A stretch of DNA of 64,000 bases from an uncultured Acidobacteriota bacterium (GTDB taxonomy: Bacteria; Acidobacteriota; Terriglobia; Terriglobales; Acidobacteriaceae). Shown piece by piece: positions 1,794-10,334 of the stretch (its first letter is position 1; each line of letters begins with the position of its first letter). The DNA is taken from contig CAVXIO010000004.1 in the NCBI GenBank assembly GCA_963761915.1, forward strand, positions 2,267 to 66,266, in the 5' to 3' direction. The notes under the pieces were generated by a model. The model did not search any database. It had not been told where the DNA came from and was given only the letters and a program-made list of their open reading frames with translations. The position numbers were made by a program, and so were the translations under genes.

Positions 1794-4700
1794 TTACTCC
1801 GCTGCCAGTTCCTCGGTTTCGCCCTCGTGGCGCATCATCTCGAGAGCGCGTTCGGCTTCTTCGTAGGCCGCCGAGACTTCCGCCTGTACCTTGGCCGCGG
1901 CCTCTTCCATTTCTGGCGAGAGGCGCACGTTGCGGTAGTACTCCATGCCGGTTCCGGCAGGGATGAGGCGGCCGACGATCACGTTCTCCTTGAGGCCGCG
2001 CAGGTAATCGACGCGGCCGTTAATCGAGGCCTCGGTGAGCACGCGCGTGGTCTCCTGGAACGACGCCGCCGAGATGAACGAGTCGGTCGCAAGCGACGCC
2101 TTGGTGATGCCGAGAAGCAGCGGGCGTCCGGTAGCGGGCCTGCCGCCTTCCTTGATCACGCGCTCGTTCTCCTCGCGGAAGTGGAACTTGTCCAGCTTGT
2201 CTTCCAGAAGGAACGTCGTGTCGCCCACGTCCTCGACCTGCACCCAGCGCATCATCTGGCGGACAATCACTTCGATGTGCTTGTCGGAGATGTTGACGCC
2301 CTGGAGCCGGTAGACTTCCTGGATTTCGTTCACCAGGTAGGACTGCAGCTCTTTTTCGCCGAGCACCGCCAGGATGTCGTGCGGGTTGAGCGGGCCATCC
2401 ATCAGCGGTTCGCCCGCCTTGACGCGCTCGCCTTCCTGCACGTTGATGTGAACGCCGCGCGGCACCGAATATTCTTTTTCTGTGCCGTTGTCGGCCTGCA
2501 CATAGAGTTTGCGCTGACCTTTCGAAACCTCGCCGAACTTCACCGTGCCATCGATTTCGCTGATGACCGCGGTTTCGTGCGGCTTGCGGGCTTCGAACAG
2601 CTCGACCACACGCGGCAGACCACCTGTGATGTCTTTGGTCTTGGTGGTTTCGCGCGGGATCTTGGCCAGCACATCGCCGGGCGAAACCGCGTCGCCATCC
2701 TGCACCATAAGGTGAGAGCGGGAAGGCATGAGGTAGCGCTTGCTGGTCTTGCCTTTGACCACGATGGCTGGCTGCCGCTTCTCGTCGGGCGAATCGCCCA
2801 CCACGTGCCGCGACAATCCGGTAACCTCGTCCACTTCTTCGTGGAGCGTGACGCCTTCCTGCAAGTCCTTGAATTGCGCCGTGCCGCCGATTTCGGTAAG
2901 GATGGCGAACGTGTAAGGATCCCACTCCACCATGACCTTGCCTTGCTGCACCGCGTCGCCGTCGTTGACCTTGAGCTTGGCGCCGTAAATCACGGAGTAG
3001 CGCTCACGCTCGCGGTTCTTCTCGTCCACGACTGCGATCGAGCCCTGGCGGTTCATCACCACCAGGTCGCCCGACTTGGACTTGACCGTCTGCAGACCGA
3101 TGAAGCGCACCGTGCCGTTGTTCTTGGCATCGAGCCGCGACTGTTCGGAGACTCGCGACGCCGTACCGCCGATGTGGAAGGTACGCATCGTAAGCTGCGT
3201 TCCCGGCTCGCCGATGGACTGCGCGGCGATAACGCCAGTTGCTTCGCCGAGTTCGACCAGGCGTCCAGAAGCCAGGTTACGGCCGTAGCACATGACGCAG
3301 ACACCGCGCTTCGATTCGCAAGTAAGCACCGAGCGGATCTTCACCCGCTCGATTCCGGCGGACTGAATCGATCCGGCGAGTTCTTCGGTGATCTCGTGGT
3401 TGATGTCGACGATCACGTTGCCGTCGTAGTCTTTGATCTTCTCAAGCGAAACGCGGCCCACAATGCGGTCGCGCAACGGCTCGATAATTTCGCCGGCTTC
3501 GACGATACCCTGGACGTAAATGCCGTCCACGGTGCCGCAATCGTACTCGCTGATGATGACGTCCTGCGCCACGTCGACCAGACGCCGCGTGAGGTAGCCG
3601 GAATCGGCCGTCTTGAGCGCCGTGTCGGCCAGACCCTTGCGGGCGCCGTGGGTCGAGACGAAATATTCCAGCACCGTCAACCCTTCGCGGAAGTTCGCCG
3701 TGATGGGAGACTCGATGATTTCGCCGGAAGGCTTGGCCATCAGTCCGCGCATGCCGGAGAGCTGGCGAATCTGCTGTTTCGATCCGCGGGCGCCGGAATC
3801 AGCCATGACGTAAATCGGATTGATGAAGCCTTCCTTGTCGCGCTTCTGCATCTGTCCGAACATCTCGTCGGCAACTTTTTCGGTGATGGCCGACCAGATT
3901 TCGATGACCTTGTTGTAGCGCTCGCCGTTGGTGATGGCGCCGTCGAGGTATTGCTGCTGCACGGCGACCACCTGCTTCTCGGCGTCCTTGACCAAGGTCT
4001 TCTTGCTGTCGGGGATGACCATGTCGTCGATGCCGATGGAAAGGCCGGCTCGGGTTGCGTACTTGAAGCCGAAATCCTTTACTTCGTCGAGCATCTTGAC
4101 CGTGGTCTCGAGTCCGAACCGCAGGTAGCCGTAGTTCACCAGCGCGCCGATGCCCTTTTTCTTGAGCAAGCCGTTGATGAAGGGCATGCCCTCGGGCAAG
4201 TGGTCGTTCAGGATGGCGCGGCCGACCGTCGTATTGACGAAGGCACGCTCCACATGAACCGGCTCGGTGTGAATGATGTCCTGATCGTCGTAGGCGGTGG
4301 TCAGGTCAATCAGTTCGCCGGTGTAGCGCAGGCGGATGGGAGAAAGCGTTTCCACTTCGCCCATTTCGAGCGCCAGCAAAACTTCTTCAATGTTGGCGAA
4401 CACGCGGCCTTCACCCTTCGCGCCCGGCTTGGACTTGGTGAGGTAATAGAGACCGAGCACCATGTCCTGCGTGGGGACGGTAATCGGCTGGCCGGATGCG
4501 GGCGAAAGAATGTTGTGCGAGGCCAGCATCAGCACGCTGGCTTCAACCTGCGCTTCCGGAGACAGCGGAATGTGCACTGCCATCTGGTCGCCGTCGAAGT
4601 CGGCGTTGAACGCCGTGCAGACCAGCGGATGAATCCGGATGGCTTTGCCTTCCACCAGCACCGGCTCAAACGCCTGAATGCCCAGGCGATGCAGCGTGGG

Positions 4701-5981
4701 AGCGCGGTTCAGCAGCACCGGATGGTCCTTGATGACTTCTTCAAGGATGTCCCAAACGATGGGTTCCTGCTGCTCCACCATTTCTTTCGCTTGCTTGATG
4801 GTGGTGACGTTGCCGGTCTGTTCGAGCCGGTGATAGATGAAGGGCTTGAACAGTTCGAGCGCCATCTTCTTGGGCAGTCCGCACTGGTGCAGCTTGAGTT
4901 CGGGACCGACCACGATGACGGAACGTCCGGAATAATCCACGCGCTTGCCGAGCAGGTTCTGGCGGAAGCGGCCCTGCTTGCCCTTGAGCGTGTCGGAAAG
5001 CGACTTCAGCGGACGGTTGTTGGCGCCGCGCAGCACGCGGCCACGGCGTCCGTTGTCGAACAGCGCGTCGACGGCTTCCTGCAGCATGCGCTTTTCATTT
5101 CTGACGATGACTTCAGGCGCGTGCAGGTCCATCAGCTTCTTCAACCGGTTGTTGCGGTTGATGACGCGGCGGTAAAGATCGTTCAGATCGGAGGTGGCGA
5201 AGCGGCCGCCATCGAGTGGAACCAGCGGGCGCAGCTCCGGCGGAATCACCGGGATGACGTCGAGGATCATCCAGTGCGGCTTGTTGCCGCTGCGGCGGAA
5301 GGCCTCGACCACTTTCAGGCGCTTCGTATATTTGAGCCGCTTCTGCAGCGAGCTCTCGTTCTTCATCTTCTCGCGCAGCTCAACGGCCAGGCCGTCGGTG
5401 TCGATGCGCTTGAGCAGTTCCTTGATCGCCTCGGCGCCCATCATGGCCTTGAATCCAGCCGGACGGTATTGCTGGTCGAGTTCGCGGAACTTGGCTTCGT
5501 CCTTGATGACCTCGCGCTCTTTCACCGGAGCGTCGCCGGGCTCGACCACCACGTAGGCCTCGAAGTAAAGCACGGACTCGAGGTCGCGCAGCGAAATATC
5601 GAGCAGGTGTCCGATGCGGCTGGGCAGGCCCTTGAAGAACCACACGTGCGAGCAGGGCGAAGCCAGCTCGATGTGTCCCAGGCGTTCGCGGCGGACTTTC
5701 GAGAGCGTGACTTCCACGCCGCACTTGTCGCAGATCACGCCGCGATGCTTCATGCGCTTGTACTTGCCGCAGAGGCATTCCCAATCGGTTACAGGGCCGA
5801 AGATGCGGGCGCAGAACAGGCCGTCCCGCTCCGGCTTGAAGGTGCGGTAGTTGATGGTCTCAGGCTTGGTGACTTCGCCATGAGACCAGCTCCGGATTTT
5901 TTCCGGAGACGCCAGGCTGATGCGGATGGCATCGAAATCCGCAATCGTGTTTTGCATTTCGAACGGGCTCGAACGAAACAA
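1794..5981 (-). CDS. rpoC: DNA-directed RNA polymerase subunit beta-prime, distal copy B (1395 aa if started at the internal TTG)
   Basis: Full-length beta-prime: N-terminal zinc motif [23 protein letters not shown], catalytic [27 protein letters not shown], and C-terminal [10 protein letters not shown] plus stop at 1794. Its own GGAGGAACACC-TTG (TTG at 5979-5981) is retained. No stop codon precedes it, so it is in frame with copy A. Confidence 0.9.
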
Positions 5982-8900: not shown

Positions 8901-10334
8901 GCCTTCGACGAGCACCGGCTCAAACGCCTGAATACCGAGGCGATGCAGCGTGGGAGCGCGATTCAGCAGCACCGGATGGTCTTTGATGACCTCTTCCAGA
9001 ATGTCCCAAACGATGGGCTCCTGCTGCTCCACCATTTCCTTAGCTTGCTTGATGGTGGTGACGTTGCCGGTCTGTTCCAGGCGGTGATAGATAAACGGCT
9101 TGAACAGTTCGAGCGCCATCTTCTTCGGCAAGCCGCACTGGTGCAGCTTGAGTTCGGGACCGACCACGATGACGGAACGCCCGGAGTAATCCACGCGCTT
9201 GCCGAGCAGGTTCTGGCGGAAGCGGCCCTGCTTGCCCTTGAGCGTGTCAGAAAGCGACTTCAGCGGGCGGTTGTTGGCGCCGCGCAGTACGCGGCCACGG
9301 CGGCCGTTGTCGAACAACGCGTCCACCGCTTCCTGCAGCATGCGCTTTTCGTTGCGGACAATCACTTCCGGTGCGTGCAGGTCCATCAGCTTCTTCAACC
9401 GGTTGTTGCGGTTGATGACGCGGCGGTAAAGATCGTTCAAATCAGAAGTTGCGAAGCGACCGCCATCGAGTGGAACCAGCGGACGAAGTTCCGGCGGAAT
9501 TACCGGGATCACGTCAAGGATCATCCAGCTCGGCTTGTTGCCGCTGCGGCGGAAAGCCTCGACCACTTTCAAGCGCTTGGTAAATTTGAGCCGCTTCTGC
9601 AGCGAGCTCTCGTTCTTCATCTTCTCGCGCAGCTCGATTGACAGGCCATCGGTGTCGATGCGCTTAAGCAGTTCCTTAATCGCCTCGGCGCCCATCATGG
9701 CCTTGAAGCCAGCCGGACGGTATTGCTGATCGAGTTCGCGGAACTTGGCTTCGTCCTTGATGACCTCGCGCTCTTTCACCGGAGCATCGCCGGGCTCGAC
9801 CACTACGTACGCCTCAAAATAAAGAACGGACTCGAGGTCACGCAGCGAAATATCGAGCAGATGGCCGATGCGGCTGGGCAGGCCCTTAAAGAACCACACA
9901 TGCGAGCAGGGTGAAGCCAGCTCGATGTGTCCCAGGCGTTCGCGGCGGACTTTTGACAGCGTGACTTCCACGCCGCACTTGTCGCAGATCACGCCGCGGT
10001 GCTTCATGCGCTTGTACTTGCCGCAGAGGCACTCCCAGTCTGTTACGGGGCCGAAGATGCGGGCGCAGAACAGGCCGTCCCGCTCCGGCTTGAAGGTGCG
10101 GTAGTTGATGGTCTCAGGCTTGGTGACTTCGCCATGCGACCAGCTCCGGATTTTTTCCGGAGACGCCAGGCTGATGCGGATGGCATCGAAGTCGGCAATC
10201 GTGTTTTGCATTTCGAACGGGCTCGAACGAAACAAGGTGTTCCTCCGCTTCCTGCTCTCGAGGCAGCTGCCAGCTATCGGTTGCCAGTTGCCAGTTTTTT
10301 ATGTTCCGCAGTGGCTGAGAGCCTGGACCCTGCG
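1827..10334 (-). repeat. 2 x 4254-bp tandem direct repeat (rpoC plus about 95 nt of upstream spacer)
   Basis: Landmarks are offset by exactly 4254 nt (1418 codons): TTG at 5979-5981 vs 10233-10235, and the His codon at 1827-1829 vs 6081-6083. The copies are diverged, not identical. Confidence 0.85.
5982..10235 (-). CDS. rpoC: DNA-directed RNA polymerase subunit beta-prime, proximal copy A (no stop codon; reads through a 33-codon linker into copy B)
   Basis: GGAGG Shine-Dalgarno with TTG at 10235. Same motifs as copy B, all intact. It ends at ...ALEMMRH (His codon 6081-6083), then the linker [33 protein letters not shown] (5982-6080). The ORF track gives one 2813-aa ORF, 1794..10235. Confidence 0.85.

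Follow-up and report, generated by a model that had tools for sequence, protein, structure and literature searches.

A tandem beta-prime/beta-prime reading frame in an uncultured Acidobacteriota contig probably results from end-to-end assembly of the rpoC genes of two species

The genes for the large subunits of bacterial RNA polymerase (RNAP) are known in several unusual arrangements, and these are the nearest described parallels to the locus analysed here, a single open reading frame (ORF) holding two rpoC units, each for a beta-prime subunit, in a 64-kb stretch of DNA (the window; 64,000 nucleotides (nt) of contig CAVXIO010000004.1) from an uncultured Acidobacteriota bacterium. The rpoB-rpoC fusions of Helicobacter and Wolbachia, and the beta-beta' proteins of 2482-3161 amino acids among the matches to the fused product of the window, likewise come from a long ORF formed by read-through between RNAP large-subunit genes. 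However, these fusions join beta to beta', have a 1:1 stoichiometry and are lineage-wide, whereas the window ORF joins beta' to beta' and is a single case, absent from 80 relatives. In cyanobacteria and plastids rpoC is split into rpoC1 and rpoC2, which also departs from the rule of one gene and one beta-prime, but is a split of one beta-prime and not a doubling. A paralogous gene for an RNAP core subunit, the second rpoB called rpoB(R), is present in Nonomuraea and Nocardia and resembles our case in that two full-length core-subunit genes occur in one sequence record. In contrast, rpoB(R) is known from isolate genomes, is unlinked or separately expressed and carries functionally distinctive substitutions, whereas the two window copies, called A and B here, are without distinctive substitutions (1 and 0 private residues, respectively), each being the ordinary ortholog of a gene of another species.

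Homology-facilitated illegitimate recombination, in which foreign DNA enters by one non-homologous joint beside a homologous region, gives the same order of a truncated copy A, a spacer and a copy B (PMC3240628), but in the window microhomology at the joint is minimal, and the homologous joint would lie outside the window. Long-read metagenome assemblers, on the other hand, concatenate subpopulation-specific variants (Trigodet et al., bioRxiv 10.1101/2025.04.22.649783), and the false direct repeats reported average 600 to >4,000 bp at 88-96% identity, are unsupported by any read and create spurious ORFs (bioRxiv 10.1101/2025.04.22.649783). Like these, the window locus is a kilobase-scale direct repeat within the 88-96% range (4254 nt, 92.4%), its two copies represent different populations, and its long ORF is probably spurious. 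Unlike in the cases of the preprint, which were diagnosed by read clipping, the duplicated block here is a conserved gene, with more divergence in its flanks. We consider it likely that the locus is an artefact of metagenome assembly, in which the rpoC genes of two species were joined end to end.

The fused arrangement consists of the following features, given in positions of the window, with clades named after the reference loci described further below.

1794..10235, minus strand: fused ORF of 2813 codons, made up of copy A codons 1-1385, a 33-codon linker, the complete copy B and a stop
6081..10235, minus strand: rpoC copy A, codons 1-1385, ending ...EMMRH; L004/L005/L010 clade
6080..6081, no strand: junction, ...GAGATGATGCGCCAC / GGCGGGGCTTTCGC..., a blunt join
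5982..6080, minus strand: linker of 99 nt (33 codons), the last part of a second, B-type rpoB-rpoC spacer
1794..5981, minus strand: rpoC copy B, complete, 1395 codons and stop; L001/L074/L002/L003 clade

The ORF is uninterrupted and starts with a TTG codon preceded by GGAGGA, and the two rpoC units within it are offset by exactly 4254 nt, with TTG starts at 10235 and 5981 and the His codons of the MMRH motif ending at 6081 and 1827. In both copies the Zn motif (CLCGKYK at residue 69 and CDKCGVEV at residue 84, spanning residues 69-91) and NADFDGD (residue 459) are kept, and all five Rpb1 domains of Pfam (PF04997, PF00623, PF04983, PF05000 and PF04998) were matched twice, once per half. Each half is thus a bona fide RpoC by domains, Zn cysteines and NADFDGD loop. 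Copy A is without the final 10 codons and the stop, a tail that is present in all close relatives. A preliminary description of this DNA had already reported two rpoC units in one uninterrupted minus-strand ORF, their offset of 4254 nt, the motifs kept in both copies and the shortened end of copy A, and each of these statements was confirmed. Over the 1385 shared codons the copies differ at 316 nt (92.4% nt identity), with 34, 12 and 270 differences at codon positions 1, 2 and 3, respectively (85% at third positions), and over the final 400 nt compared, close to the 3' ends, identity was 88.8%. These values fit the earlier statements that nt differences lie mostly at third positions and that identity is approximately 90% near the 3' ends, while the estimate of about 35 amino acid differences (approximately 97% identity) came near the 31 counted here (97.8%). 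The rpoC repeat is the sole direct repeat of at least 60 nt within the window, which contains no N, and a match of 4.2 kb at 92% identity is no product of chance.

Scanning the GTDB species, with one genome for each, gave 80 loci at beta-prime identities of 89-99%, none of them the window itself and all of them from uncultured soil Terriglobia (Acidobacteriaceae, Candidatus Sulfotelmatobacter and similar) and many from Nanopore metagenome-assembled genomes (MAGs) of Microflora Danica. The latter, which dominate among the closest relatives, were assembled from Nanopore reads by Flye (--meta --nano-hq), followed by a single Medaka round (PMC12313526). Within +/-10 kb, each of the 80 related species genomes contained one rpoC, so that an inspection of the rpoB-rpoC loci of the closest genomes, proposed in the preliminary description, turned out against a duplication shared with relatives. 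The highest nt identities were those of copy B to L001 (94.1%) and of copy A to L005 (92.3%). Scanning JGI metagenomes with copy A gave a closest locus at 88-89% nt identity, in a search diluted by the universal DFDGDQMA pattern, and the contigs behind two near-identical N-terminal fragments (P0142 and P0144) were 87-94% identical, no nearer than the references.

In neighbour-joining trees of rpoC, built from copies A and B and the 15 closest genomes with 200 bootstraps, A and B were sisters in 0/200 bootstraps. Copy B was placed within the L001/L074/L002/L003 clade in 200/200, the smallest clade containing copy A was always within L004/L005/L010, and trees built separately from the first 3 kb (5') and the last 1.2 kb (3') agreed (A with L005 in 179/200, B with L074 in 170/200). 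The two reference clades have fixed differences at 27 sites, located at both gene ends, and at these copy A carried the A-clade allele in 24 cases and copy B the B-clade allele in 25. Furthermore, A and B shared a single exclusive site, compared to 22 for L006 and L007 and 11 for L003 and L002, both of them pairs of true sister species. The ratio of nonsynonymous to synonymous substitution rates (dN/dS) between A and B was 0.040 at a synonymous divergence (dS) of 0.34, compared to 0.006-0.030 at dS 0.28-0.51 in between-species ortholog pairs, and amino acid changes private to one copy numbered one in A and none in B. The codon-wise comparison, likewise suggested in the preliminary description, thus gave values of ordinary between-species orthologs. 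By these trees, sites and rates, A and B are orthologs from different species-level clades, without a shared history apart from other species, and between them there is no concerted evolution, because they share only one exclusive substitution, no gene conversion and no relaxed or divergent selection. Neither are the copies each other's closest relatives nor is the arrangement kept in related genomes, as would be expected of tandem paralogs within one genome. Purifying selection on both copies, as read earlier from the third-position differences, agrees with the low dN/dS, but not in the sense of co-maintenance in one genome; a low dN/dS is the signature of two sole-copy orthologs in separate genomes and hence is not evidence of co-maintenance.

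Campbell-type integration of a circular fragment was considered and rejected, since it predicts a reciprocal mosaic, yet each copy belongs to a single clade over its full length. As a separate observation, the nearest relative shifts along rpoC, from L001 in the 5' part to L074 in the 3' third for copy B, and from L004 to L030 and then L005 for copy A. These shifting neighbours indicate frequent inter-species recombination in this Terriglobia group, or a mosaic consensus in several of the MAGs.

The two copies also differed in how many alleles of their own they carried. Only 10 private nt sites were found in copy B and 31 in copy A, compared to 35-84 in 13 reference genomes, and in copy B one of these lies in the first 2.8 kb and eight in the 3' third. 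Control genes of the window were normal, with 52 private sites in rpoB and 21 in the downstream BrkB gene, both within the reference ranges. In Tajima relative-rate tests copy B had approximately half the unique changes of each of its clade-mates (p 5e-8 to 9e-3), whereas the controls (reference against reference, rpoB and the BrkB gene) were clock-like. The distance of copy B from the references' majority consensus was also the smallest (4.4% compared to 5.9-8.6%), and at the sites where it differs from L001 copy B carried the allele commoner in other lineages (50-69% compared to 25-40%), while being 5.9% from its nearest reference. Divergent yet built almost only of alleles known elsewhere, copy B looks, by its allele content, like a majority consensus of the reads of several related populations and not like a single lineage, whereas its 3' third and the flank beyond look like a real L074-like genome. 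The collapsed or consensus character of one copy, as expected of haplotype concatenation, was thus found in copy B. Gene conversion between the copies was rejected as the cause of this central position, as copy B is equally near L004 (92.3%) and copy A (92.4%) and shares one exclusive site with the latter.

The linker carries the ribosome-binding site GGAGGA of copy B and is stop-free only in frame 0, which is the rpoC frame. As the length of the kept spacer is divisible by three and this spacer has no stop in the rpoC frame, one reading frame of 2813 codons results, and such an in-frame read-through needs only a frame coincidence of about 1 in 3. The rpoB-rpoC spacers of relatives are open in the same frame, as seen from N-extended gene calls (P0123, P0125, P0130 and others). 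The sequence across the A/B junction includes CGCCACGGCGGGGC, and at the CAC/GGCGGGG joint the shared microhomology is at most 2 nt. The junction lies 33 nt short of the normal rpoC stop and 5 nt inside the 5' arm of a conserved spacer hairpin, which is whole in front of copy A but cut short in front of copy B; the first repeat unit starts at approximately 10333/10334, within the whole hairpin (10303-10338). The idea that the repeat boundaries mark the limits of inter-species homology holds only approximately, as homology runs 33 nt (3' end) and approximately 25 nt (spacer) further, and it was not used.

Searches for the junction gave no second case. A junction 35-mer with degenerate third positions had no match in JGI metagenome contigs, no protein returned for a 163-amino-acid junction-spanning query against 5.8 billion proteins joined a beta-prime C-terminus to the spacer, and no exact match was present in the searched collections for the fused product (with an L or M start, or from the internal ATG), for copy B by itself, for a neighbouring protein of 1131 amino acids or for the junction DNA. 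The search with the whole fusion protein gave matches of at most 72% identity and no close full-length relative, which says little on near neighbours, and its matches of more than 2400 amino acids were all beta-beta' fusions with Rpb2 domains, none of them beta'-beta'. In these collections the fused ORF did not recur in independent genomes or assemblies, as would be expected of a natural RNAP fusion.

The assembly artefact would have arisen when the assembler set two alternative versions of one locus in series and did not choose one. Both versions would be rpoC of co-occurring species-level Terriglobia lineages (Acidobacteriaceae or Ca. Sulfotelmatobacter-like). The real gene of the assembled genome would be copy A, along with rpoB and the upstream 54 kb. 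Copy A would have been cut 33 nt short of its stop, and a second branch, beginning 99 nt ahead of the rpoC start codon, would have been pasted behind it as copy B. The first 2.8 kb of copy B would then be a majority consensus of several related lineages, followed by an L074-like 3' end and the downstream flank. It is this assembler step that we infer, and not the existence of a beta-prime/beta-prime protein; the contig may switch genome at 6080/6081 or may return to the same genome downstream. The preliminary description had named a chimera of two related haplotypes as one of its two explanations, and this is the one favoured here, but with sources that differ at the species level (dS 0.34) and not at the strain level, and with a copy B that resembles a multi-lineage consensus.

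Some points weigh against an artefact. The rpoC 3' end and the spacer share no k-mer at the junction, and hence the join is not one that a de Bruijn graph or an overlap graph would predict. It would need to be an unsupported concatenation of the kind described in the preprint, a mechanism harder to invoke if the contig came from a short-read k-mer assembler. The consensus-likeness of copy B could in principle be that of a real lineage which is slowly evolving or highly recombinant. Finally, the flanks do not clearly come from two genomes, the placement of rpoB being ambiguous and the BrkB gene grouping with L074/L001 in approximately 150 of 200 bootstraps.

Rearranged rpoC sequences of this clade were also seen in other assemblies. 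A 963-nt ENA contig (P0121) contains a tandem repeat of the N-terminal ~60 residues of the rpoC product, and in an 897-nt ENA contig (P0122) rpoC residue ~77 is joined straight to the C-terminal ~50 residues, which suggests that misassembly recurs at rpoC in this clade. In the ENA contig of L161 (ERZ1700618 contig_EHDLDABF_8846), a single rpoC at 1811-6021 is split by frameshifts into five called ORFs, and we take these frameshifts to be uncorrected indel errors of long reads; downstream of this rpoC follow BrkB, pyruvate kinase, a hydrolase and QueC.

An explanation that we regard as improbable, though deserving consideration, is that an A-lineage Terriglobia cell very recently acquired a foreign rpoC in tandem from a relative of the B clade. 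Homologous recombination would then have taken place downstream of rpoC, beyond the window start, while the spacer at -99 was joined illegitimately to host codon 1385; equivalently, a fresh tandem duplication could have been followed by replacement of the second unit with a foreign allele. Translation of copy B would still begin at its own GGAGGA-TTG, and the A-linker-B polypeptide would arise as an accidental side product. Such an event agrees with the clean blunt join at a non-homologous site, the contiguity of copy B with an L074-like 3' flank, the adherence of each copy to one clade along its full length and the intact ribosome-binding site and start of copy B. The lack of shared substitutions is compatible with a very recent event, and homology-facilitated illegitimate recombination is established in several bacteria (PMC3240628). 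However, a second case was found neither in the 80 related species, nor in JGI metagenomes, nor among the proteins that the 5.8-billion-protein collection yielded. Joints formed by such recombination typically show short GC-rich microhomology of a few nt, and the at most 2 nt at this joint are weaker than that. Breakpoints no more than 33 nt from the gene end in the host and inside the 187-nt spacer in the donor, which so add exactly one whole gene, would be a coincidence if random. Direct repeats of 4.2 kb at 92% identity are recombinationally unstable, and a 310-kDa beta-prime fusion is probably costly. The strongest point against the acquisition is the near-lack of private alleles in copy B, which is unexpected of a real donor genome. 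It is slightly less probable still that the tandem is real in the sense of an uncultured Terriglobia carrying a xenologous second rpoC, potentially with a 2813-amino-acid fusion, as a natural merodiploid for an essential core subunit, at a stage that precedes any deletion or gene conversion.

An old in-situ tandem duplication with divergence into co-maintained paralogous beta-prime subunits, which the preliminary description had named as the first of its two explanations, accounts for intact copies with catalytic and Zn motifs kept and with differences mostly at third positions, but it is hardly credible, as phylogeny, single rpoC in relatives and the selection pattern contradict it: copy B is nearer to the single rpoC of L001 (94.1%) than to copy A (92.4%), the bootstraps (0/200 as sisters) and the clade-diagnostic sites separate the copies, neither gene-conversion tracts nor derived sites in common were seen, selection is neither asymmetric nor relaxed, the one amino acid change private to a copy is that in copy A, and the duplication, which must predate the radiation, is rejected because it needs reciprocal losses in all 80 sampled species, with different copies kept per clade.

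Around the two rpoC units, the following neighbouring features were identified.

588..1589, minus strand: gene for a BrkB/YihY-family membrane protein, the conserved downstream neighbour of rpoC in the clade
1703..1756, minus strand: GC-rich palindromic hairpin of the GTCATCCTGAGCG...GAAGGATC type, directly past the copy B stop
10236..10422, minus strand: native rpoB-rpoC spacer upstream of copy A, holding the hairpin at 10303-10338
10423..14892, minus strand: rpoB, 1489 amino acids, single copy, 52 private substitutions

The gene order is tuf-secE-nusG-rplKAJL-rpoB, followed by the two rpoC units and the BrkB/YihY-family gene, and the locus thus departs from the canonical rplKAJL-rpoBC cluster, in which a single rpoC follows rpoB. 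Five tRNA genes flank tuf upstream of secE-nusG (19425-22456, minus strand), in the usual tRNA-tuf-tRNA-secE order. The rpoB gene is long, and its Rpb2_1 match is spread over residues 147-569; this implies that the N-terminal part of beta holds an insertion specific to the lineage. The tree placement of rpoB was ambiguous, and the upstream 4-6 kb did not resolve within this star-like, recombining clade. On the other side, the BrkB-family gene groups weakly with L074/L001, and the downstream flank inside the window measures 1.8 kb and is L074/L001-like up to the window edge.

The spacer hairpin has the form GUUUCGCAGGG...CACUGCGGAAC, followed by CAUAAAAACUGG, and is kept across relatives including L003, L004, L006 and L030, with an apparent compensatory change (CAG/CUG in the window compared to CGG/CCG in most relatives). 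This hairpin may act in processing or attenuation; its fold was no stabler than that of shuffled sequences (z = 0.58). The GC-rich hairpin past copy B (-35 kcal/mol, z = -2.75) takes the place of the CGGGGGCGAAC/GTTCGCCCCCG terminator hairpin found in 12 of 13 close relatives and is common only to L074. It resembles a small palindromic element of a mobile or repetitive kind, and a second partial match to it occurs at 1561-1573 (plus strand).

In conclusion, the giant beta-prime/beta-prime gene is most probably no real feature of this organism. As it stands, the locus is of cautionary value, as concatenated alleles of two species can yield giant "fusion" ORFs in MAG-derived catalogues, and such concatenations are detectable without reads from the phylogenetic placement of each copy together with exclusive shared sites and private alleles. 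Conserved markers like rpoC in long-read MAGs may be a consensus of several lineages, which bears on rpoC and rpoB phylogeny and on average nucleotide identity. Should it be real, such a fusion of two beta-prime subunits, or a second rpoC of xenologous origin, would be without precedent, and would raise questions on RNAP assembly, on subunit stoichiometry and on the inter-species replacement of core transcription genes.

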